Source of the DNA: a virus | Lineage: Duplodnaviria > Heunggongvirae > Uroviricota > Caudoviricetes | Reading direction: 5' to 3' (one strand) | IMG/VR virus record: IMGVR_UViG_2778261172_000008 | DNA length: 10,600 nucleotides | Part shown: one piece after another, positions 1 to 10,600 of the stretch | How the letters are laid out: each line of letters opens with the position of its first letter | Position numbering within the stretch: position 1 is the first letter of the stretch | Notes under the pieces: model-generated | What the model was told of the DNA's origin: nothing | Database searches by the model: none | The model's input: the letters and a program-made list of their open reading frames with translations, nothing else | Program-made: the position numbers and the translations under genes

Positions 1-195
1 TCAAACATCAAAATAAGTCAATGATAAAAAACAAATAATAAAACACAACAATGAAATATGCCCCCTTTTGTGCCCCCACTGTTTTTCTGACCAATCTATT
101 TTCAGCCCATCAACAAATCGGAAAGTTAAATAATTTTTAATCAGTAAGTTTGGATCCGTAGTTCGGATCCAAACCAGTGCATCTTTTATCCACAT

Positions 196-495
196 AAAAA
201 ATTTTTTTTCGGAAGAACTGTTCACACTGTTCACCTTTCTTTTTTCTCCTTTTATTTCATAGTGATAGGTGGTGAATAATGGGTGAAGGGTGAACATTCG
301 ATTCTTCACCTCCGGCATTCTGCCGGTGTGACTTGTGCAGGGGATTAATCCTCCGCACTGAAATCACTCAGGAAGAAAAAAGTTTTTTTTGATTTGATTG
401 TTCACACTGTTCACCTTTCGTTTTTCTCTTTTAATTTCAGTGTGATAACGGGTTAATATACGGTGAAGGGTGAACAGTGGATTGTTCACCTTCGG
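196..495. repeat. crr (cis replication region): two ~120-bp direct repeats (about 196-315 and 371-495) with alpha-binding iterons
   Basis: Seen directly: 218-315 and 398-495 align base for base with few mismatches (period 180 bp). Each copy starts with an A-run/T-run plus GGAAGA and contains TGTTCACA/TGTTCACC (219-226, 228-235; 399-406, 408-415) and inverted GGTGAACA (289-296; 469-476; plus TGTTCACC at 483-490). Known: P4 crr is two 120-bp repeats carrying type I iterons bound by alpha. Confidence 0.75.
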
Positions 496-508
496 GGGAT
501 GTCGGGAT

Positions 509-534
509 AAAAAAAAGACCGGCAGATGCCGGTC
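509..534 (-). terminator. Rho-independent terminator of the alpha/left operon
   Basis: On the minus strand GACCGGC-AUCU-GCCGGUC (7-bp GC-rich stem, 517-534) is followed by 8 U (plus A-run 509-516), 8 nt after the alpha stop codon at 542-544. Confidence 0.75.
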
Positions 535-541
535 AGGTGGG

Positions 542-2875
542 TCAGGCTGTTGCAGGGTCGTCACATTTTGGCAGCCAGTCGCCGTAGCTTTCCTCTTTCA
601 GCGTCAGGTTGGTCTGTATCCCCTGTTTGGTATGGCGCTTCTCGTAATTCAGTCCGTATTCCTTCAGCATCACCGGCAGCCCCAGCCCGAACATTTTCAG
701 ACTGAGTACATTCCGGTAGCCGTTTGCCTCCATGTAGGCCAGATAGGCGTGATAGAGGTATTTACGGTAATTACGCGGGATGATACTGGCGTTCCCCATA
801 TACATGCCGCTGGTCTGCGGCAGGGTTTCCAGATAGCCGATAAAATCAAACGTCGGGTCGGCATCCCGTTTGATGTTCAGTGCCTCGTCTGAGTTCTGCT
901 GGGACTGAAGCAGTGACCGGGCGAGCATCGGGTCGCTGAACTTCTGCATCAGGTGACGCACGATGACCGCCAGCTCGCGGGTGATTTTGTCCTTAAGCTG
1001 CGGGTCGCGCTCCTGCGGGGCTATCTGTTCCGGGAAGTGAATAATCACCCGCCGGCGTGACACGCCGCCGCTGCGGTCGGTGAAGCGCATCGGGTTATTG
1101 TTCACGGCCAGAATCACCGCCGGGATGTGCGTGGAGTACGCATCCCGGTATTTCGGGTCAACGGACACCGCGTCGCCGCCGGTGATGGCCTTGAGTCCGG
1201 CACCGTCGCCGCTCCATTTTTCCTGGTCCGGCAGGCGTATCAGTGAGAAGCCAGTTAACGCGGCACGTTCACGCGGGGATTCCAGCGTCTCGATGGTGGC
1301 CGACGTGGCGTTATCCTCCCCGGCCAGCAGGGTGGCTATTTCGGCCATGATACTTTTGCCGCTGCCGCCGGGACCGGTCACCTCCAGAAAGAGCTGCCAG
1401 TCGTAGCGGTTTGCCAGCACCATAAACAGTGCGGCCAGAATCACGTCGCGTTTTTCCGCACGGCCACCGGCGGCACGGTCAAGCCAGCGCCAGAACGCGG
1501 GGGCGTGGGTCTCCAGCGTTTCACCGTCCACCGGCGGGGTGAAATCCACATCGCACAGGGTGCGCATCCAGTGTGACGGACTGTGCGGGTGGAACGTGCC
1601 GTTCTGCGTGTCGAGCACGCCGTTACGAAAGCCAATCAGGCGGCGGGAGGGGGCTTCCTGCTGCGGAATAATCAGCTTCAGGGTGTCCACCACGGAGGCC
1701 ACCTTCCCGGAGGAGAACGGCGCGCGCAGACGCTGAAACAGCCCGGCCACATCCCGGGCAAAGTCCTGTGGCGGCAGCACCTTCCAGACACCATTTTCAT
1801 AGCGGGACAGAAGCTGGCCGTTGGCATCGACCGCGAGCGCCTCGCCGTAATGCTCATAGATACGCATGGCCTTTTCGCTGGTACTCATGGCGGAAAACTC
1901 TGCTTCGCTCATGGTGTCGAACGGGCTTTCAGCCGGTGGCCGGATGGCATCGTAAATGGCCTTACGGGTGGCCTCCCCGCCGTACTGCGTGAAGGCATCA
2001 TTCCAGTCACCGAAGACCGGCGGCAGGGCAACAACGCCCTCACACGCATCTGCGGCTGCGGCGGCTTTTTTCTGGCCGTCACCGCTGAGGTCACGGTCAG
2101 CAGCAAGGACAATCTGACAGGCCGGATGCTTCTGCCGGGCAAGGCTGGCCAGAGAAAGGAGGTTCACGGAAGAAAGCGCCACCATCACCGTTTCACCGGT
2201 CAGGTGATGTACGGTAAGTGCGGTCGCGTATCCCTCCGCTATCCACAGACGTTTTCCGGCCTGATTCTGTCCTTCAAGGGTGTGACAGGTGCCCCTGACC
2301 TGTCCGCCTTTCAGGGTGCGCTTACGGCCGTCAGCACTGATTAACTGAAGGTTAACCAGTTCGCCGCTGTCGTCATACAGTGGCACCACAAGGTCACCGG
2401 CGCGCCAGCTCACGCCACCGGCTCTGTGTGTGCCGGTCAGCATCCGGCATTCCCGGCCGGGAAAGCCCTTGCGGGTCAGGTAGGCGTTACCGGTTCCGGG
2501 ACGGGTTTTCGCCATCAGGGTTTGTGCCAGTGCGGCGGCGTTCTTCCGGGCAGCGTCTGTTTCAGCAACGGCAGCGGCCGTCACTGCCGGGTCAGCCGGG
2601 GGCAGACTGCCGGTCACGGCAGCCACCTTTGCGGCCGCGTCGGACGGGGAAACACCAAACACCTTTTCAACCAGTTTCAGGCCGTCACCGGCACCACACT
2701 GATTGCAGTACCAGGTGCCGCGCCCCTCCCTGTCATCAAAACGGAAGCGGTCACTCCCGCCACAGACCGGACAGGGCTGATGACGGTTTTTCAGCACCTG
2801 AATCCCCAGCGCCGGGAGAATACGCTGCCAGTGGCCGAGCGCATGGCTGACGGTGGCGGTTACGTTCATTTTCAT
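542..2875 (-). CDS. alpha: P4 alpha-type DNA primase-helicase (replication initiator binding the ori/crr iterons)
   Basis: 777-aa ORF, the length I recall for P4 alpha. N-terminal zinc-ribbon CPVCGG...CNQCG, central Walker A GPGGSGKS. SD AAGGAG 8 nt upstream of the ATG at 2875. Followed by crr and a terminator. Confidence 0.93.
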   Translation of the reverse strand: MKMNVTATVSHALGHWQRILPALGIQVLKNRHQPCPVCGGSDRFRFDDREGRGTWYCNQCGAGDGLKLVEKVFGVSPSDAAAKVAAVTGSLPPADPAVTAAAVAETDAARKNAAALAQTLMAKTRPGTGNAYLTRKGFPGRECRMLTGTHRAGGVSWRAGDLVVPLYDDSGELVNLQLISADGRKRTLKGGQVRGTCHTLEGQNQAGKRLWIAEGYATALTVHHLTGETVMVALSSVNLLSLASLARQKHPACQIVLAADRDLSGDGQKKAAAAADACEGVVALPPVFGDWNDAFTQYGGEATRKAIYDAIRPPAESPFDTMSEAEFSAMSTSEKAMRIYEHYGEALAVDANGQLLSRYENGVWKVLPPQDFARDVAGLFQRLRAPFSSGKVASVVDTLKLIIPQQEAPSRRLIGFRNGVLDTQNGTFHPHSPSHWMRTLCDVDFTPPVDGETLETHAPAFWRWLDRAAGGRAEKRDVILAALFMVLANRYDWQLFLEVTGPGGSGKSIMAEIATLLAGEDNATSATIETLESPRERAALTGFSLIRLPDQEKWSGDGAGLKAITGGDAVSVDPKYRDAYSTHIPAVILAVNNNPMRFTDRSGGVSRRRVIIHFPEQIAPQERDPQLKDKITRELAVIVRHLMQKFSDPMLARSLLQSQQNSDEALNIKRDADPTFDFIGYLETLPQTSGMYMGNASIIPRNYRKYLYHAYLAYMEANGYRNVLSLKMFGLGLPVMLKEYGLNYEKRHTKQGIQTNLTLKEESYGDWLPKCDDPATA

Positions 2876-2889
2876 GGTGTTGTTCTCCT

Positions 2890-3210
2890 TCAGTGCAGTA
2901 CCGGCGCTTTTATGTGACGGGCACAGAGTTCATCCATCACAACCAGCCCGAGAAAGGACAGCGACGGCGCGGCCTTCAGGGGGCCGGATTCCATTAAATC
3001 TTCCAGCAGGGCACAGGCTATCTGACGCCCTTTTTCCTCACCGTGCTGGCGCAGATAAAAGCCTTCCAGCTCAGCGGCGATGGCCGCCTCCAGTGACTCA
3101 AGGGTGAGATGCGGGTAGCGGTGCTGACGTTCGCACACGGTCAGCCAGGCACAGGCGACAGCGCGACGGTAAAGGGCAGCGCGTAAGGCGGGCGGTAAGG
3201 GTGTTTTCAT
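2890..3210 (-). CDS. Left-operon small protein (106 aa), unknown function; possible alternative epsilon candidate
   Basis: ORF with SD GGGAGG about 6 nt upstream of the ATG at 3210. Its stop lies 14 bp before the alpha start, overlapping the alpha SD. Not assignable by eye to a named P4 gene. Confidence 0.6.
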
Positions 3211-3345
3211 TTGTTTTCCTCCCTGTGACAGATGACTGCATTCCGTGCCGGTTGCATTAACTGATAAGGCATATCTGCGTCTCCTGAAGACGTGCGTATC
3301 CCTGCGCGAATACGCACATTTAATTTTTCGGGTGTCGTTTTTTAA

Positions 3346-3801
3346 TTACAGATAATTGCGGTAACTGTTATCCGGGGTGATTTCCGGGTCAGGCTCCGTG
3401 CGGGGAATTTCCCGCCATTCCCGCGCTACCGGTGCTGCCCGGCTGACCGGAACAGTGTCCTGCGGGTAAATATCCAGATATTTTTCCCGCCATTTCTGTA
3501 ATTCCGGGTCTCCGGCCATTTCTTTCAGTACCGCATGCCGGTTTACGGGGCTGCGTTTAAACAGGTCAGGACGGTCACAGGTAAATTCCCGCAGAAAACG
3601 CCCCAGCGGGATGTCTGTGGTGCGCCCGTCAGCGAGGATACGCACAAGGATACTGAATTTACGGCGGTACGGGTTCCAGACAATGTCCGGGCAGCGGTAC
3701 GGCATTTCCCACGGAATACCGTCTTCCAGAATGCCAACCACGGCCACATCGGGAAAACCGGCAGAACGGTAAATCTCACCGGGCTGGGGAAAATCAAACA
3801 T
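3346..3801 (-). CDS. P4 orf151-like protein (151 aa), unknown function
   Basis: Length equals the P4 left-operon ORF known as orf151 and it sits upstream of alpha. Its start overlaps the stop of the upstream ORF by 8 bp (coupled-translation arrangement). Confidence 0.7.
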   Translation of the reverse strand: MFDFPQPGEIYRSAGFPDVAVVGILEDGIPWEMPYRCPDIVWNPYRRKFSILVRILADGRTTDIPLGRFLREFTCDRPDLFKRSPVNRHAVLKEMAGDPELQKWREKYLDIYPQDTVPVSRAAPVAREWREIPRTEPDPEITPDNSYRNYL

Positions 3802-4081
3802 GCGTCCTGTCTCCCCGGTCTTTCTGCTGGGCGAGAAAATCGCGGCACAGGCCTTTGGCTTTCAGTTCATTCAGCACAAAATCAATATCTTCATTCAGGT
3901 AGCTGAAAATATGCGGAATGTAGAGCTGATGCAGGCCGGAGAGTTCACGGTGAATCAAATCACCCCCAACAAACTGGGATACGGCGCTGGCGCGGTTGAG
4001 CTTATGGTAAGCCTCAATGCTGAGGTGTTCACGGGCGTCATGACGCGCTGAGACGGTCTGAGGGGCTTTTTTATTACGCAC
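3794..4081 (-). CDS. 95-aa left-operon protein with GTG start; candidate P4 epsilon (helper derepression/antirepressor) homolog
   Basis: The ORF track shows a 147-aa frame (3794..4237) whose first ~50 residues are Cys/Pro/Arg-rich and lack an SD. In the same frame a GTG at 4081 is preceded by GGAGG (4088-4092) with a 6-nt spacer, giving a 95-aa product ([10 protein letters not shown]...GDRTHV). The epsilon assignment rests only on my recollection that epsilon is about 95 aa and on position. Confidence 0.5.
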
Positions 4082-4271
4082 GGGACACCTCCACCACCGG
4101 CAGACGGGCAGCAAGGGAGAGCACATAGTCACGGACAAGGGAACGGCGGGCACTGCGTTCATCACCGGCGACGGTGCGAAGCATGCAGATACGGGGATGA
4201 CGGTCTGCGCGACGGACAGCCGCAAACACAAAGACAAATTCAGGGTGTGAAGGGGTAAGGGTTGTAGCCAT
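4074..4271 (-). CDS. First ORF of the left operon (65 aa); kil/eta-like candidate
   Basis: In-frame ATG at 4271 within the long 4074..4718 ORF, with SD GGAGG (4280-4284) 8 nt upstream. Stop overlaps the GTG start of the next ORF by 8 bp. The SD lies inside the seqC-like element. Identity with P4 kil/eta is inferred from position only. Confidence 0.4.
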
Positions 4272-4299
4272 GATGGCAGCCTCCGTTAGATAGCAGGTT

Positions 4300-4395
4300 A
4301 CGCTATCGCCGGAGTTTCCACGCTCGATGGCGATAGCCCAGACGGGGGTGGAAATACCGGCTCTAACGGATACCGGCCAGCCCGGAGGCTGCCCC
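4300..4395 (-). ncRNA. CI-RNA-like immunity RNA region (seqB) with cognate seqA/seqC target sites
   Basis: Seen: plus 4362-4369 TCTAACGG and 4383-4393 CGGAGGCTGCC are the exact reverse complement of 4275-4290 GGCAGCCTCCGTTAGA (seqC-like); 4550-4558 CCGTTAGAT (seqA-like) is also complementary to 4362-4369. A 9-bp stem (4302-4310/4329-4337) lies between. Known: P4 immunity uses a small CI RNA whose seqB pairs with seqA and seqC on the nascent transcript to force termination. RNA ends are not determinable. Confidence 0.45.
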
Positions 4396-4604
4396 GCCTG
4401 AGCTACCATTGACTCTGCGGCATAATGAGCGGACGCGGGCAGGATGCACGGAGTGCCATCTGCTCGACTGACCACACACCACACCATAATCTGGCGCTCT
4501 GTGGCGTTGATTGCGACACAAAAAAAGACGCATGGCGCGTCATATGTCGCCGTTAGATTGCTCGGGTTTCCACGCCCGGCTGCCGATTTTGCGACAGCGG
4601 AAAA

Positions 4605-4634
4605 ACTATATCCGCAAATGCCGGAAAAAGGCAA
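4605..4634 (-). promoter_or_regulatory. Candidate sigma70 early promoter (PLE-like) for the immunity region/left operon
   Basis: Minus strand: -35 TTGCCT (plus 4629-4634), 18-bp spacer, -10 TATAGT (plus 4605-4610). Lies 36 bp downstream of the vis stop and about 40 nt upstream of the seqA-like element. Confidence 0.35.
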
Positions 4635-4669
4635 GCCAGAAAAAGGGACTTTTTGCAGAACAGGCATCA

Positions 4670-4936
4670 TCATGCGTCGTACCCCCGTTTGCGTCCGGCA
4701 ATGCGCCCGGCCATCCATGCGGTGACTTCAGAGTGCAGCCAGGCCACATTTTTACCGCCAAGACTCACCTGTGGCGGAAATTCCCCCTTACGGATGAGTT
4801 CATAGATGGTCGAGCGTGACAGGCCGCACAGGTGCATCACTTCCGGCAGACGTAAAAAACGCTCCTGCGTGATGTTCGGCAGCGGCATCAGTGGCGTCAC
4901 AGGGGCGGGAGACGGGGAAGAAAAAACAGCTTGCAT
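4670..4936 (-). CDS. vis: Vis / AlpA-family small DNA-binding regulator (excision/late-promoter regulator)
   Basis: 88 aa, the length of P4 orf88/Vis. AlpA-type helix-turn-helix signature [27 protein letters not shown]. First gene of the minus-strand operon, divergent from sid. Confidence 0.8.
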
Positions 4937-5081
4937 CGGGCTACCTCGTTAATGTCCATACAGCACCGGATAAGTCCGTCCGGCTTCGGGTAGCGCTTTA
5001 TTTTGTGAATATTTTCAGCAGACGCAACAGGGGGGATTTGTTCCGGCAGCCTTACAATGCTTGTGTGTTTTTTGTTCATCT

Positions 5082-5121
5082 CCACTTAAAGTCATTTAAA
5101 GCCACTTAAAGCAATTTGTAA
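5082..5121. repeat. Four tandem 10-bp units (CCACTTAAAG / TCATTTAAAG / CCACTTAAAG / CAATTTGTAA) in the vis-sid intergenic region
   Basis: Read directly from the sequence; one-helical-turn periodicity upstream of vis suggests phased protein binding sites or intrinsically bent DNA. Confidence 0.6.
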
Positions 5122-5174
5122 TTTTTATAGTGAAATACAAATCGTTTTTTCTTATTCATTCCCGGCGAATTAAT

Positions 5175-5345
5175 AAAAACAAACAGTAATAAACAGCACA
5201 AAAAGCCCATCAACGGGTGAACAGTGGTGAACAGACGGTGAACAGTCATTACTGCGATTGTTCACCATTTAACTTACTGTATTACTTATCTTTTTTCTTA
5301 TGGTGAACAGAGGTGAACAGTAAAATATAAAAAAACAAACAGTAA
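5175..5345. other. Replication origin (ori): six type I iterons bracketed by a 15-bp direct repeat
   Basis: GGTGAACA at 5216-5223, 5226-5233, 5237-5244, 5302-5309, 5312-5319 and TGTTCACC at 5259-5266: the same octamer as in crr. AAAAACAAACAGTAA occurs at 5175-5189 and 5331-5345 on either side. Known: P4 ori and crr share alpha-binding iterons and lie about 4.5 kb apart. Confidence 0.75.
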
Positions 5346-5400
5346 GCCGGTTTTTCCTGCGACCTTTTCCTGGCTTGCCGGTGTGAGGATGAGTCTCCTG

Positions 5401-5470
5401 TGTCAGGGCTGGCACATCTGCAATGCGTCGTGTTGTTGTCCGGTGTACGTCACAATTTTCTCAACCTGAA
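5401..5470 (+). promoter_or_regulatory. Psid-like late promoter region with Ogr/delta-type activator dyad
   Basis: Perfect TGT-N12-ACA at 5437-5454 and an imperfect TGT-N10-ACA at 5401-5416, 34-87 bp upstream of the sid ATG; possible -10 CACAAT at 5451-5456; no -35. Known: P2/P4 late promoters are activated through TGT-N12-ACA dyads. Exact register relative to the TSS is not determinable here. Confidence 0.4.
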
Positions 5471-5487
5471 GTGACGAGGAGCCGAAA

Positions 5488-6222
5488 ATGTCTGACAACA
5501 CCATCCCTGAATATCTGCAATCCGCGCTGGCACAACTGGAAAAGGCCAGAGCCGCCCATCTTGAGAACGCCCGTCTGATGGATGAGACCGTCACGGCCAT
5601 TGAACGGGCAGAGCAGGAAAAAAATGCGCTGGCGCAGGCCGACGGAAACGACGCTGACGACTGGCGCACGGCCTTTCGTGCAGCCGGTGGTGTCCTGAGC
5701 GACGAGCTGAAACAGCGCCACATTGAGCGCGTGGCACGCCGGGAGCTGGTACAGGAATATGACAATCTGGCCGTGGTGCTGAATTTTGAACGCGAACGCC
5801 TGAAAGGGGCGTGTGACAGCACGGCCACCGCCTACCGGAAGGCACATCATCACCTTCTGAGTCTGTATGCAGAGCATGAGCTGGAACACGCCCTGAATGA
5901 AACCTGTGAGGCGCTTGTCCGGGCAATGCATCTGAGCATTCTGGTACAGGAAAATCCGCTCGCCAACACCACCGGCCATCAGGGCTACGTCGCACCGGAA
6001 AAGGCTGTCATGCAGCAGGTGAAATCATCGCTGGAACAGAAAATTAAACAGATGCAAATCAGCCTCACCGGCGAGCCGGTTCTCCGGCTGACCGGACTGT
6101 CAGCGGCAACACTCCCGCACATGGATTATGAGGTGGCAGGCACACCGGCACAGCGCAAGGTGTGGCAGGACAAAATAGACCAGCAGGGTGCAGAGCTTAA
6201 GGCCAGAGGACTGCTGTCATGA
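5488..6222 (+). CDS. sid: Sid, capsid size determination protein (external scaffold redirecting helper capsid to small size)
   Basis: 244 aa, the length of P4 Sid. First gene of the late operon, SD AGGAG 7 nt upstream. Stop overlaps the delta start (ATGA at 6219-6222). Confidence 0.88.
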   Translation: MSDNTIPEYLQSALAQLEKARAAHLENARLMDETVTAIERAEQEKNALAQADGNDADDWRTAFRAAGGVLSDELKQRHIERVARRELVQEYDNLAVVLNFERERLKGACDSTATAYRKAHHHLLSLYAEHELEHALNETCEALVRAMHLSILVQENPLANTTGHQGYVAPEKAVMQQVKSSLEQKIKQMQISLTGEPVLRLTGLSAATLPHMDYEVAGTPAQRKVWQDKIDQQGAELKARGLLS

Positions 6223-6719
6223 TTTACTGCCCGTCGTGTGGACATGTTGCTCACACTCGTCGCGCACATTTCATGGACGATGGCACCAAGATAATGATTG
6301 CACAGTGCCGGAATATTTATTGCTCTGCGACATTTGAAGCGAGTGAAAGCTTTTTCTCTGACAGTAAAGATTCAGGAATGGAATACATTTCAGGCAAACA
6401 GAGATACCGCGATTCACTGACTTCTGCCTCCGGCAGTATGAAACGCCCGAAAAGAATGCTTGTTACCGGATATTGTTGTCGGAGATGTAAAGGCCTTGCA
6501 CTGTCAAGAACATCGCGGCGTCTGTCTCAGGAAGTCACTGAACGTTTTTATGTGTGCACGGATCCGGGCTGTGGTCTGGTGTTTAAAACGCTTCAGACCA
6601 TCAACCGCTTCATTGTCCGCCCGGTCACGCCGGACGAACTGGCAGAACGCCTGCATGAAAAACAGGAACTGCCGCCAGTACGGTTAAAAACACAATCATA
6701 TTCGCTGCGTCTGGAATGA
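6219..6719 (+). CDS. delta: Delta, late transcription activator (tandem Ogr-like zinc fingers)
   Basis: 166 aa, the length of P4 delta. Two cysteine clusters: CPSCGH...C (N-terminal) and CCRRCKG...CTDPGC (C-terminal), consistent with a duplicated Ogr-type zinc finger. Confidence 0.88.
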   Translation: MIYCPSCGHVAHTRRAHFMDDGTKIMIAQCRNIYCSATFEASESFFSDSKDSGMEYISGKQRYRDSLTSASGSMKRPKRMLVTGYCCRRCKGLALSRTSRRLSQEVTERFYVCTDPGCGLVFKTLQTINRFIVRPVTPDELAERLHEKQELPPVRLKTQSYSLRLE

Positions 6720-6792
6720 GGGCTGCCGGTTAACCCCGGCCGTCGCCGCACACCGTATTTTTATTCTTCAGCATGATGAGAAAGAGATAACG

Positions 6793-7365
6793 ATGGAAAG
6801 CACAGCCTTACAGCAGGCCTTTGACACCTGTCAGAATAACAAAGCAGCATGGCTGCAACGCAAAAATGAGCTGGCTGCGGCCGAACAGGAATATCTGCGG
6901 CTTCTGTCCGGGGAAGGCAGAAACGTCAGTCGCCTGGACGAATTACGCAATATTATCGAAGTCAGAAAATGGCAGGTGAATCAGGCTGCCGGTCGTTATA
7001 TTCGTTCGCATGAAGCCGTTCAGCACATCAGCATCCGCGACCGGCTGAATGATTTTATGCAGCAGCACGGCACAGCACTGGCGGCCGCACTGGCACCGGA
7101 GCTGATGGGCTACAGTGAGCTGACGGCCATTGCCCGAAACTGTGCCATACAGCGTGCCACAGATGCCCTGCGTGAAGCCCTTCTGTCCTGGCTTGCGAAG
7201 GGGGAAAAAATTAATTATTCCGCACAGGATAGCGACATTTTAACGACCATCGGATTCAGGCCTGACGCGGCTTCGGTGGATGACAGCCGTGAAAAATTCA
7301 CTCCTGCGCAGAACATGATTTTTTCGCGTAAAAGTGCGCAACTGGCATCACATCAGTCTGTGTAA
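6793..7365 (+). CDS. psu: Psu, polarity suppression protein (Rho antagonist / capsid decoration)
   Basis: 190 aa, the length of P4 Psu. Last gene of the sid-delta-psu operon, immediately upstream of cos. Confidence 0.88.
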   Translation: MESTALQQAFDTCQNNKAAWLQRKNELAAAEQEYLRLLSGEGRNVSRLDELRNIIEVRKWQVNQAAGRYIRSHEAVQHISIRDRLNDFMQQHGTALAAALAPELMGYSELTAIARNCAIQRATDALREALLSWLAKGEKINYSAQDSDILTTIGFRPDAASVDDSREKFTPAQNMIFSRKSAQLASHQSV

Positions 7366-7400
7366 AACCCCCCGAAAATCCGCCCGTTTTTACTGAAAAA

Positions 7401-7430
7401 AGCCATGCATCGATAAGGTGCATGGCTTTG
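7401..7430 (+). terminator. Candidate terminator at the end of the late operon
   Basis: 9-bp stem AGCCATGCA (7401-7409) / TGCATGGCT (7419-7427) with a 9-nt loop, followed by TTTG; 36 bp after the psu stop. The T-run is short, so this is moderate. Confidence 0.5.
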
Positions 7431-7529
7431 CATGCGTTTTCCTGCCTCATTTTCTGCAAACCGCGCCATTCCCGGCGCGGCCTGAGCGTGTCAGTGCAAC
7501 TGCATTAAAACCGCCCCGCAAAGCGGGCG

Positions 7530-7548
7530 GGCGAGGCGGGGAAAGCAC
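7530..7548. other. cos site (19-nt cohesive end of P2/P4 type)
   Basis: Exact occurrence of GGCGAGGCGGGGAAAGCAC, which I recall as the P2/P4 cohesive-end sequence, flanked by a GC-rich imperfect dyad (7511-7530). Positioned after psu as in P4. Confidence 0.8.
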
Positions 7549-7682
7549 TGCGCGCAGACCTTGTTACATACTTAATAAAGTTCACAAATACTTAATACCA
7601 TCACGCTCATGTGCAAAACTGTTTATTAAAATGAATACTGCCCTATACATCTAAAGTGTCGTTACCATAATAAAAGAAGATT

Positions 7683-7707
7683 ATAAAAAGCCGCCATAAT
7701 GCGGCTT
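7683..7707 (-). terminator. Rho-independent terminator of the hotspot cargo gene
   Basis: Minus strand: 7-bp stem AAGCCGC / GCGGCUU (7688-7694 / 7701-7707), 6-nt loop, then UUUAU; 24 bp after the cargo gene stop at 7731-7733. Confidence 0.7.
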
Positions 7708-7730
7708 AAATCATACTCATTCCTAATAAG

Positions 7731-9194
7731 TTATTTGACATTCGATGCAGAAACCTTATTAGGCCTAGCATCAATCAAGACTAAATCCTTACCTTCTTTA
7801 ATCCCAAGTTCTTTGAAAGTCTTAAACAATCCAGACAATTCTCGATCAGTAAAATACAAAATAACCTTTATTGATTTTTTTGTTTCATTTGCCGCCTCAT
7901 ACACTTTAACCTGATTTGCCAGGTTCTGTTTAAGCTTGGAGTTACTAGCCAGTTTGAATTCAACCAATGTTTTATCTTTCGAACCTCTCGATATTTTGTA
8001 GTCAACGGGACCACGACCATTATTTACTTCACTATTGACATCAGAAATACTAGCAAACCATGTTAATCTAAACATTAACTGCAAATCAGCTTCACGCTTA
8101 ATTGGGACACCATTCAAATAGAATACTTTATAGCCATCATTATTTTCTATTACCTGTTTAAGATAACAGACTCGCTTATAGGCCTCTTCGAAAGTATCAT
8201 CCTTTGAACTAAAGAACTCCTGATGTTTATTAAAGATTGTATCAACCAAAAGTTGGACAGCTTCAATATACCTTTGCTCAGTTTCGCTAACCTTTGCATT
8301 ACTATCACGTTTAGCACCCCCAGAGTTTTGTTCTTTATAACGAATATAATAATCAATAAAACTCGGGTAATTCTTAATTGTCAAATCAGCAGCGGACTCT
8401 CGTTCCTTTTTCTTTGGAGAGTCTGGGAGACATCTATTGAAATAATCAGACAATTGTCCACGCAATTGATCATTAGGGATACTTTCACATATATCTCTAA
8501 AGTCCTCGATCATTTCATTTCTGTTAATCCAAGTTTCATCTTTTGTGAGTATATCTCTCGGAGTTAAAAGAACATAATCTCCAGCATATGTTGGCAACGT
8601 GAATTTTTTACTCATCCAACTTCTGGTTTCGTAATTAAATTCAACTTTTGGTACTAAGTGTTCAGAGAGATATTTACTATCTATATTTTCTTTAGAGAAA
8701 TCTTCAGTATACTTCAGTAAAAACGATTTAATTAAATTAGTGGTAAAATCACTAATACTATCCTTTCCTACCCCCTCCTTAATCAAACACAATTTTTCAA
8801 GATGACTTCCCTCAGTAATTTCCTCTTTACCAAAGTTTTTTAAAATACTTGAAAATGAGGTGGTTAAGGAATTTGCAAAATCAATACCCAATCCACTCCC
8901 ACCGTTCCCAACCATGCTATAACCCAGCCAGTTTTGTTTTACCTCAGGAAATAAAAACCAACTTTTGATTAAACCTCGATTTAATTCTCCATTCTGAGAA
9001 CGATCTCTTAAGAAAGAAACATATTTAATTATCCCCTGATGTAAATCTATATATTTCTCATTATTAAATAACAAAAACGGATCAATAAATAGCGGCAAAT
9101 CATTAATCAGAGAAATATTAAATGCACCATACTCTTTTATTTTTTCAGGAGATACATTAAAAAAATCTGAAAAATATATTCTTAACTTTGGCAT
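7731..9194 (-). CDS. Hotspot cargo protein (487 aa), unknown family; C-terminal PD-(D/E)xK-like nuclease motif; candidate anti-phage defence protein
   Basis: Single uninterrupted ORF with SD AGGAGG 5 nt upstream of the ATG. Composition roughly 25-40% GC in sampled stretches versus about 60% in the P4 core. It occupies the cos-int interval where P4 carries gop/beta/cII. Motifs: PVD (D398) followed 14 residues later by EFK (E412-x-K414) in alternating hydrophobic context; glycine-rich VGNGGSGLG at residues 95-103. No family recognised by eye. Confidence 0.85.
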   Translation of the reverse strand: MPKLRIYFSDFFNVSPEKIKEYGAFNISLINDLPLFIDPFLLFNNEKYIDLHQGIIKYVSFLRDRSQNGELNRGLIKSWFLFPEVKQNWLGYSMVGNGGSGLGIDFANSLTTSFSSILKNFGKEEITEGSHLEKLCLIKEGVGKDSISDFTTNLIKSFLLKYTEDFSKENIDSKYLSEHLVPKVEFNYETRSWMSKKFTLPTYAGDYVLLTPRDILTKDETWINRNEMIEDFRDICESIPNDQLRGQLSDYFNRCLPDSPKKKERESAADLTIKNYPSFIDYYIRYKEQNSGGAKRDSNAKVSETEQRYIEAVQLLVDTIFNKHQEFFSSKDDTFEEAYKRVCYLKQVIENNDGYKVFYLNGVPIKREADLQLMFRLTWFASISDVNSEVNNGRGPVDYKISRGSKDKTLVEFKLASNSKLKQNLANQVKVYEAANETKKSIKVILYFTDRELSGLFKTFKELGIKEGKDLVLIDARPNKVSASNVK

Positions 9195-9343
9195 AAAAAC
9201 CTCCTTTAAATCAAAGCTTAATCCAATAGATCATTAATCTTAACATACCACACTGAATCCTACCTGAGTTACTAACAAAGTTAGATTGATATCTCAGAAA
9301 ACGTGATAGTGTTAACATAAAATATAACAATAGATGTTACCCG

Positions 9344-10600
9344 CTATTCAGACTTAGCATAATCATAAGGTGTGATATATTTTTCTTTATTTGCTCCCAA
9401 GTAGTCAGCCCACCACTGAATCATTAGCCGACGTTCATCTAAATGCTCTGAAGTATGAATATAAGCAGCACGCACATTGTTACGCTCAGCATGACTCAAC
9501 TGACGCTCTATTGCGTCATCACTCCATAATCCTGACTCTCCCAAGGCTCCACGCGCCATTGTTCTAAATCCATGCCCACAAACTTCAGTTTTGGTGTCAT
9601 ATCCCATTGAGCGTAAAGCATTGTTTACCGTATTTTCACTCATAACTTTCGTAGCATCGTGATCCCCAGGAAAAAGAAACTCCTTATCACCACTAATTTG
9701 TGTTAGCTGCCTCAAGAGTTCCATGGCTTGATGACTTAATGGCACAATATGTTCTTCTTTCATTTTCATACCACGGTATGAGTAACGCACTCCTTTAATT
9801 TCTTCACGTTTTGCCGGAATACGCCAAATTGCGTTATCAAAATCAAACTCTCTCCAACGAGCAAAGCGTAATTCACTTGAGCGAACAAATGTTAGTAAAG
9901 AAAGCTGAACCGCAATTTTTGTCATTATACGACCACGATATGCAGCGAGACGTGCCAATAATTCGGGAAAACGATGGGAGGGTAACGCTGGATAGTGTCG
10001 TGTTTTAACTGTCGATAAAGCACCAGCCATATCACTGGCTGGGTTTGAGTCGATATAATCGTTCTGTACGGCATAACGCATAATAGCTGTAACACGCTGC
10101 TGAAGACGCTGCGCGACGTCATGCTTACCACTGGCATCAACTTTTTTAATCGGGGCTAACAGGTGGCTTGTTTTAAGCTGGCGGATATCGGACGATCCGA
10201 TATGAGGGAAGATATAAAGCTCAAGATAGCGAAGAACGCGCGCTCTATGGTCTTCACTCCAGCGCTTGTTACTGGCATGCCATTCACGAGCGATCGTTTC
10301 GAAAGTATATGCCCCCGATTTCTCGGCCTGAGCCGCTTTCTGCTCGGCTTTTGGATCAATACCCTGCACTAATAATCTTTTAGCTTCATCACGTTTTGCC
10401 CTTGCCTGGGCAAGTGTCACAGTAGGCCAAACGCCAAAAGCGAGGCGATCCTCTTTTTTGTCTGAAGGGCGTCTGTATTTCATACGCCAGTATTTAGATC
10501 CCTTGGCCGAAACCTCAAGATACAAACCGCCACCATCGGCCATTTTGTAGGTTTTGTCTTTTGGCTTTGCGGTCTCGACCAGTCTGGCGTTGAGCTTCAT
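9344..10600 (-). CDS. int: P4-type tyrosine integrase (site-specific recombinase)
   Basis: 418 aa. N-terminal arm-binding signature MKLNARLVETAKPKDKTYKMADGGGLYLEVSAKGSKYWRMKY, C-terminal catalytic HGFRTMARG box and a downstream tyrosine region (RAAYIHT). The ATG is the last three bases of the window, so RBS, promoter and attachment site are outside it. Confidence 0.93.
   Translation of the reverse strand: MKLNARLVETAKPKDKTYKMADGGGLYLEVSAKGSKYWRMKYRRPSDKKEDRLAFGVWPTVTLAQARAKRDEAKRLLVQGIDPKAEQKAAQAEKSGAYTFETIAREWHASNKRWSEDHRARVLRYLELYIFPHIGSSDIRQLKTSHLLAPIKKVDASGKHDVAQRLQQRVTAIMRYAVQNDYIDSNPASDMAGALSTVKTRHYPALPSHRFPELLARLAAYRGRIMTKIAVQLSLLTFVRSSELRFARWREFDFDNAIWRIPAKREEIKGVRYSYRGMKMKEEHIVPLSHQAMELLRQLTQISGDKEFLFPGDHDATKVMSENTVNNALRSMGYDTKTEVCGHGFRTMARGALGESGLWSDDAIERQLSHAERNNVRAAYIHTSEHLDERRLMIQWWADYLGANKEKYITPYDYAKSE

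Follow-up and report, generated by a model that had tools for sequence, protein, structure and literature searches.

An AT-rich island beside cos in a P4-like satellite prophage is a known defense hotspot occupied by a single gene for a three-part putative nuclease protein

A 10,600-nt stretch of viral DNA (IMG/VR record IMGVR_UViG_2778261172_000008), called the window here in its full length, represents a P4-like satellite prophage that has inserted at a tRNA-Leu gene. Between its cohesive-end site, cos, and its integrase gene, int, lies an AT-rich island, which is the published defense hotspot of P4 and holds an already catalogued gene, so that the feature as such is known. The cargo of this slot is a single gene for a three-part protein with a predicted nuclease domain, for which a single-protein defense of the abortive-infection type is, in our judgment, the most likely function. 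The observations at hand concern the location, junctions and rarity of the gene, the nuclease fold and motif of its product, the swapping of effectors among relatives, and the autonomy of the gene.

Window positions 1-7529 align with P4 positions 4096-11624 at 98.2% identity, a span that comprises crr, alpha, orf106, the immunity region, sid, delta and psu up to cos. The gene order is sid, delta, psu, cos, cargo, int, tRNA-Leu, and a 98.8% identical copy of the element adjoins a tRNA-Leu gene in an E. coli chromosome. From cos to the right end of the window, we distinguish the following features:

7530-7548, no strand assigned: cos 19-mer GGCGAGGCGGGGAAAGCAC, the cohesive-end site common to P2 and P4, identical to bases 1-19 of the P4 genome
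7549-7560, no strand assigned: last conserved bases, TGCGCGCAGACC, from a five-element alignment; recombination junction at 7560/7561
7561-7687, no strand assigned: cargo-specific AT-rich spacer from cos to the terminator, confined to the same 17 E. coli genomes as the cargo
7688-7707, minus strand: intrinsic terminator from a terminator scan, hairpin AAGCCGC-loop-GCGGCTT plus T-run, 7 stem pairs
7731-9194, minus strand: cargo gene, 487 aa, WP_001572310, from the open reading frame (ORF) list and its translation; identical sequence in Rousset Table S1B
9195-9343, minus strand: spacer of 149 nt between the int stop and the cargo start, from the sequence
9344-10600, minus strand: int, a tyrosine recombinase of 418 aa, 82.9% identical to P4 int

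The original prediction, made by a model from the DNA letters, had the island stand in for the P4 genes gop, beta and cII. Indeed, beyond the cos region, homology to P4 resumes only inside int (window 9359 corresponds to P4 2674), and other E. coli P4-like elements hold gop-beta-cII or a P-loop NTPase in the same slot, next to the same left flank. This flank is present in 2273 of 5426 complete E. coli genomes, and 17 of these 2273 carry the cargo, which is therefore not a core gene of P4-like elements.

The psu-int locus next to cos has been described as a P4 defense hotspot with >300 gene arrangements (Rousset 2022, PMC9122126), and it has been reanalyzed by Domainator (PMC11754643) and by Moura de Sousa et al. 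2026 (PMC13586616). Its structural hallmarks are seen in our element: the position between psu and int, the adjacency to cos with a conserved-to-variable junction, and the variable content between near-identical elements. Table S1B of Rousset lists the identical protein as system 20, under the Pfam label 'DpnII-MboI' and with the comment 'Nuclease', at 73 of 5251 loci (PMC9122126). System 20 ranks among the 30 most frequent hotspot occupants in E. coli. Cluster 10 of Domainator (14 loci, one coding sequence, 'Nuclease') is the same system (PMC11754643).

The predicted AT-rich island between cos and int was borne out by sliding-window and segment values of the fraction of guanine plus cytosine (GC). 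In 200-nt windows, GC ranged from 0.245 to 0.365 across 7601-9400, from 0.46 to 0.60 on the left side, and from 0.39 to 0.50 in int. By segment, it was 0.323 for 7561-9343, 0.549 for 1-7560 (with alpha at 0.612, psu at 0.529 and the psu-cos spacer at 0.585) and 0.450 for int. The cargo ORF has a GC of 0.327, and 0.275 at third codon positions (GC3), where int has 0.379. A two-breakpoint likelihood fit over 5500-10600, which gained 98 nats, put the composition change points at 7561 and 9391; neither this fit nor the sliding windows leave the profile uniform. That the shift begins within ~20 bp of cos was accurate, as it starts 12 nt beyond the cos 19-mer (change point 7561). The flanks, estimated beforehand at about 60% GC, come roughly to this value on the left only, the int flank being at 45%. 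The right-hand step is also smaller and more gradual than the left one, and the shift ends ~45 nt inside the 3′ end of int, the stop codon of which lies at 9344-9346. Note that there are further low-GC patches (0.33-0.42) outside the island, namely, the crr-repeat region and 5000-5300 (ori).

The same gene, which belongs to the Pfam families DUF8370 and DUF8371, also stands out by composition elsewhere. In eight of eight hosts (loci L002, L005, L007, L011, L013, L015, L017 and L018), it has 33-45% GC and lies below its surroundings, for example, at 45% versus 60% in Xanthomonas and at 41% versus 64% in Billgrantia. Since the gene is AT-rich in all eight hosts, the compositional island is a property of the wandering gene. 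A pattern like this agrees with a gene of intrinsically high AT content that is often transferred horizontally.

On the left, we aligned five elements, that is, the window, P4, a gop-beta-cII element, a P-loop-NTPase element and a Klebsiella element. Conservation runs for 11-12 nt past cos (YGCGCGC.AAC-like) and then gives way to unrelated sequence, and the megablast matches in the 2273 E. coli genomes end at window 7560-7561. We therefore place a sharp recombination junction at the left edge, 12 nt past cos, in agreement with Fig. 1A of Rousset 2022 (PMC9122126). Klebsiella and other P4-like loci of E. coli have the cos 19-mer as well. The idea that other cassettes reuse the cos-side spacer (7561-7729) was considered and rejected, as this sequence is present only in the same 17 genomes; together with the terminator region, the spacer is 61% identical to its Salmonella ortholog.

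The cos-side spacer also contains the 10-bp direct repeat ATACTTAATA, correctly noted in the original prediction, with exact copies at 7568-7577 and 7588-7597 as its sole occurrences in the window. The two copies, spaced 20 nt apart and located 20-50 nt from cos, could be functional, whether in terminase recognition, in IHF-like binding or in recombination. We regard this as highly improbable: the repeat lies within the variable part, is missing from four elements that share this cos (P4, gop-type, P-loop-type and Klebsiella), is degraded in the orthologous Salmonella spacer, and has an equivalent in 14.5% of composition-matched shuffles of the island. Given its variable location, its absence from these four elements, its decay in Salmonella and its frequency in shuffles, we judge the repeat to be coincidental; the suggestion that it serves as a terminase-recognition or recombination site finds no support.

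The right side behaves differently. A cassette swapped in by recombination in conserved flanks, as had been proposed, agrees with the left junction and disagrees with the right flank, where int is not conserved. Only the 17 genomes with the cargo have an int allele that is at least 99% identical to ours. Every other E. coli allele is 82-85% identical, and alignments to these other alleles begin at window 9354-9408. In Salmonella, an orthologous element aligns without a break from psu to int, with identities of 70.7% for psu, 87% for cos+12, 83.9% for the ORF, 66% for the ORF-int spacer and 84.6% for int. In Klebsiella, the ORF, the spacer and int form one unbroken alignment at 80% identity. 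The ORF-int spacer measures 149 nt in E. coli, Klebsiella and Salmonella alike. Given the shared divergence of int and cargo in Salmonella and Klebsiella, the two make up an old linkage group.

By these alignments, the exchanged unit would be larger than 7549-9343 and might comprise the cargo and int, reaching at least the right end of the window; an equivalent view is that the left arm was replaced. In E. coli, the cargo-int group would thus be joined at cos to a P4-type arm, the data not polarizing which side was replaced. As far as history goes, we lean slightly toward a mosaic unit of cargo plus int (7561 to at least 10600) that has long been linked in a separate P4-like lineage, the cos-to-att arm (psu to alpha) having been replaced by, or homogenized with, E. 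coli P4-type sequence. The private int allele (17 of 17 with this cargo, next best allele at 82-85%), the equal divergence of int and ORF from Salmonella (84.6% and 83.9%, with psu at 70.7%), the continuous 80% alignment with Klebsiella, the equal spacer length in three genera and the 98.2% identity of the left arm to P4 all argue for it. On the other side, the linkage sample consists of 17 E. coli genomes plus three other genera, compared with the 73 loci in Rousset, and the other int alleles regain homology 10-15 nt from the int stop, which leaves room for older swaps through the 3′ end of int. A history of this kind is compatible with the function proposed here for the cargo. We found no mention of a linkage between cargo and int allele in the available parts of Rousset 2022 (PMC9122126).

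The interval was predicted to hold one gene plus its terminator, and we indeed find a single credible ORF and a terminator hairpin at 7707-7688. No second gene was accepted inside the island: the other ORFs of at least 30 aa are all antisense to the cargo ORF or overlap it, cos or the spacers. One of them, a GTG-initiated ORF of 78 aa (7418-7654, plus strand), spans cos and may be the small 'hypothetical' protein WP_071837912. Older annotations pair this protein with the cargo in Rousset Table S1A, and it is absent from the current RefSeq annotation (one record).

The terminator RNA folds at -17.3 kcal/mol (z = -4.2), and its hairpin is kept in Salmonella. Upstream of the cargo, there is a strong ribosome-binding site, AAGGAGG, at 9200-9206 in plus-strand coordinates. 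A consensus scan gave no sigma-70 match in 9195-9343, the spacer in which the cargo promoter presumably lies. Within this otherwise poorly conserved int-cargo spacer, E. coli and Klebsiella have a block of 16-17 nt in common, CATCACGTTT(C)TCTGAG (window 9283-9298, minus strand), located 46-61 nt downstream of the int stop codon. For the cargo gene, the CATCACGTTT block could serve as a promoter or operator element. The gene is self-contained: it brings its own ribosome-binding site and terminator, and it has no conserved neighbor.

RefSeq/PGAP names WP_001572310 a 'DUF8370 family protein', and precomputed matches to DUF8370 (PF28123) and DUF8371 (PF28130) exist for the cluster of identical sequences and for all relatives. 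Our own Pfam and NCBIfam scans of the cargo protein gave no meaningful match, the Pfam release scanned predating these two families. The protein matches PHROG 30194 (function unknown) at E = 5e-33 and the PADLOC profile PDC-M36A at E = 8e-21, with residues 5-329 aligned to positions 5-324. A profile search of PDB sequences returned no match, and Foldseek against the PDB returned nothing at E <= 1e-3. Conservation and the structure model divide the protein into three parts:

8535-9194, minus strand: N module, codons 1-220, the most conserved part, with a mean identity of 49% and 37 columns at >=90%
8196-8534, minus strand: variable helical middle, codons 221-333, with a long helix at 292-323 in the secondary structure of the model and a mean identity of 27%
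7734-8195, minus strand: predicted PD-(D/E)xK nuclease domain, codons 334-487, with E368, D398 and E412-x-K414 and a mean identity of 44%

The AlphaFold 2 (AF2) model built on a 52-sequence alignment (31-65% identity) reached a pLDDT of 89.6 and a pTM of 0.87; this alignment was used in place of a shallow one (60-91% identity), which gave a pLDDT of 64. In the model, the C-terminal domain shows the alpha-beta-beta-beta-alpha-beta core fold of the PD-(D/E)xK superfamily. Its closest folds are BstYI, BamHI, OkrAI and BglII, the matches having been assigned to this domain from secondary structure and motif positions. E368, D398 and E412-F-K414 are invariant in close relatives and kept in 45-51 of 52 distant ones, and 10 of the 52 match Pfam PDDEXK_9. 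Judging from the model, the C-terminal domain is probably a PD-(D/E)xK nuclease that retains its catalytic residues, with activity predicted. The N module, in contrast, resembles no solved domain, neither CARF nor SAVED. D32, D38, P39, F82, E84, D145, S148, D149 and T163 are invariant in it, and H52, H131, E133 and K134 are nearly so. We propose that it is a sensor or regulatory domain, possibly an enzymatic one.

The family is large, with >6,900 clusters at 90% identity among the matches listed and at least 2252 clusters at 50% identity at E <= 1e-3. It is also unusually conserved; homologs from Vibrio, Bacillus and a candidate-phylum bacterium are 64%, 58% and 52% identical to the cargo protein, respectively. 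Several longer relatives carry a different effector next to the N module. That is, TIR replaces the nuclease after the N module in P0143, P0163, P0215 and P0224, CHAT replaces it in P0160 and is added after it in P0131, SIR2 is added after it in P0132, and a caspase is added in P0151 and P0156, one of which also has EAD7. Every relative examined, these TIR, CHAT, SIR2 and caspase forms included, matches PDC-M36A. This effector-swapping series around the N module seems not to have been described before. Tentatively, and with more hesitation than we attach to a defense role, we suggest that the N module founds an uncharacterized, phylum-spanning, single-chain immune family with interchangeable effectors and that it may itself be an enzyme or a small-molecule receptor.

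The nuclease fold also invites another explanation, namely, a solitary restriction-type endonuclease that directly cuts incoming DNA at a given sequence or modification state. Methylation by the host (e.g., Dam at GATC) or dependence on modification would then provide self-protection, and abortive infection would play no part. BstYI, BamHI, OkrAI and BglII all cut sites with a GATC core, Rousset labels the system DpnII-MboI, and one relative matches Pfam DpnII-MboI at 7e-4. In addition, the cassette lacks a methyltransferase, and restriction-type genes neighbor the homologs in Enterobacter and Billgrantia. The cargo protein itself, however, has no DpnII-MboI match in Pfam, and restriction does not sit well with TIR, CHAT, SIR2 and caspase being swapped into relatives. 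The family also occurs in lineages that are not known to have Dam, which weighs against this explanation. All in all, we consider direct restriction unlikely.

The contexts in which the gene travels bear on whom it serves. P4-like hotspots of Klebsiella, Salmonella and Pantoea also carry it, and it is present on 19 plasmids and at a solitary locus in Bacillus. In V. parahaemolyticus (L005), the 64% identical homolog forms a single cassette between attC-like repeats of ~127 nt (7850-7977 and 9462-9588). The array has at least 16 repeat copies, with DUF4238-like, AAA_15/21, NUDIX and DUF4145 cassettes as neighbors, and looks like a chromosomal integron. In Xanthomonas, the gene lies in a cassette array together with DUF4145, SymE and DUF6602, the latter being a domain of the integron defense system Damona. 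In Enterobacter kobei, it is part of a defense island, where its neighbors are ScoMcrA-HNH, a DNA methylase and two genes forming an AAA_5/LlaJI pair, and in Billgrantia, a methyltransferase-HNH fusion lies directly downstream of it. A tblastn search of 50,697 phage records gave no match.

Conserved partner genes were looked for among these neighbors and rejected, since the upstream neighbors in Vibrio and Billgrantia are unrelated. Between cos and the DUF8370/8371 gene, the Klebsiella slot (L002) has a convergent gene of 287 aa (9477-10340) that encodes an HNH motif (CHVC...ECHHLNP...CSNCH). This gene, too, was discarded as a partner, being absent from the E. coli and Salmonella versions, and has probably been stacked into the hotspot as a second system of its own.

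The cargo adjoins cos, and the other accessory genes of the element manipulate the helper, so that the cargo might also serve the satellite itself, as a nuclease against the helper P2 or rival satellites, as an anti-defense factor, or as an addiction module. Such a role would be in line with the proposal that P4 hotspot genes act in inter-viral competition (PMC9122126). It is hard to reconcile with a gene that also occurs far from satellites (in integron cassettes, on plasmids, in a defense island and at the solitary Bacillus locus), that is absent from phage records, and that has no antitoxin-like partner gene. We therefore rate a satellite-serving role as quite improbable, and below direct restriction.

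In the abortive-infection-type defense that we favor, the anti-phage activity that we infer, with its trigger, substrate and outcome (death, dormancy or direct clearance), might be pictured as follows. The N-terminal and middle parts would hold the nuclease inactive until an infection cue arrives, whereupon the nuclease would cut DNA, that of the phage and possibly that of the host. DNA degradation would then arrest or kill the infected cell, and phage production would stop in satellite-bearing cells.

Several points weigh against this picture. The nuclease fold is most like those of type II restriction enzymes and would fit direct restriction as well. The PADLOC match is restricted to the N-terminal ~325 residues of the protein, on a profile of 457 positions. 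The most conserved part is the N module with its invariant acidic and histidine residues, a pattern that fits an enzyme or a binder of small ligands better than it fits a sensor of phage proteins that evolves fast, and this acidic/histidine conservation would go unexplained by a simple phage-protein sensor model. System 20 does not appear in the tested systems of Rousset Table S2 (PMC9122126), and our literature search found no paper naming DUF8370, PDC-M36 or the cargo-protein family, none that puts the family to a test, and nothing of relevance on DpnII-MboI.

As a genome feature, the island is a textbook case of the P4 defense hotspot and nothing new in kind. What goes beyond the known is that the linkage of int and cargo enlarges the mosaic block and that the cargo is a widespread, modular nuclease protein with a structurally novel N module, coupled in relatives to five classic types of immune effector. 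The first of these suggests that some P4-like 'cassette swaps' may exchange a whole arm, from cos through at least int, and not a gene-sized cassette. Should the N module prove to be an enzyme or small-molecule receptor, it would represent a new sensing principle. System 20 is thus a well-defined, frequent and conserved candidate for defense validation and for a search for the trigger.

The remainder of the window has the makeup of P4. An Rfam scan of the window returned two RNAs, both outside the island:

4326-4413, minus strand: C4 antisense RNA (Rfam, 76 bits)
4521-4598, minus strand: isrK (Rfam, 72 bits)

These two matches mark the P4 immunity (CI RNA) region, which a P4-like element should have. 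Farther left, direct repeats of ~120 bp that are ~81% identical (196-315 and 376-495) correspond to the P4 crr repeats (4291-4410 and 4471-4590). In the chromosomes, more integrase genes or fragments follow beyond the alpha/attR end of the element (L001 870-2901 and L018 17391-19464): E. coli AF3 (L001) has a pseudo-integrase, IS3 and IS30 there, and in Salmonella (L018), an integrase of 421 aa is followed by a ScoMcrA-HNH gene. This tRNA-Leu site thus seems to hold islands stacked in tandem.

Among known systems, the closest is Rousset system 20, which has the same element type, slot and post-cos junction and an identical protein, with no structural difference. The gop-beta-cII genes of P4, a validated defense system of the hotspot (Rousset 2022, PMC9122126), occupy the same cos-int interval and are likewise AT-rich (28-44% GC). 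Unlike the cargo, they comprise three genes, are unrelated in sequence and are paired with P4 int, which is 83% identical to the int of the window. Compared with PDC-M36, an unpublished candidate of PADLOC-DB v2, the cargo protein is a distant branch with a different C-terminus and partial coverage of the profile. The DpnII/MboI family was rejected as an assignment. The cargo protein has no match to it in Pfam at E <= 1, a single one of the 52 relatives has one (7e-4), and a methyltransferase is found neither in the single-gene cassette nor as an adjoining gene in most other contexts, Enterobacter and Billgrantia excepted. Identity with one of the newly named P4 systems Crouga, Bandua, Aernus, Toga, Reve and Hailong was considered and rejected, since the domains described for them in print do not agree with those of the cargo protein.

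Among signaling defenses, Can2/Card1, NucC, Cap4 and Shedu SduA combine a sensor with a PD-(D/E)xK effector, but the N module of the cargo is unlike CARF or SAVED, and its cassette has no partner cyclase or signal-generating gene. A further comparison is with GAPS1, a single protein with an essential C-terminal PD-(D/E)xK domain, which is triggered by a capsid protein and causes dormancy, and the uncharacterized N-terminal part of which is presumed to be the infection sensor (Mahata et al., bioRxiv 10.1101/2023.03.28.534373). The two differ in several respects: WP_001572310 is not in the supplement of GAPS1 homologs, 78% of these homologs come from K. pneumoniae whereas the cargo family is rare in Klebsiella, the identity between Vibrio and E. 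coli is 24-29% for GAPS1 homologs and 64% for the cargo family, and the catalytic residues are D313 and K328 in GAPS1 and D398 and K414 in the cargo protein. Yet both are single proteins with a C-terminal PD-(D/E)xK domain and an uncharacterized N-terminal part, and both have spread across phyla on mobile elements. By analogy, GAPS1 may therefore serve as a functional precedent for the mechanism that we propose for the cargo protein.

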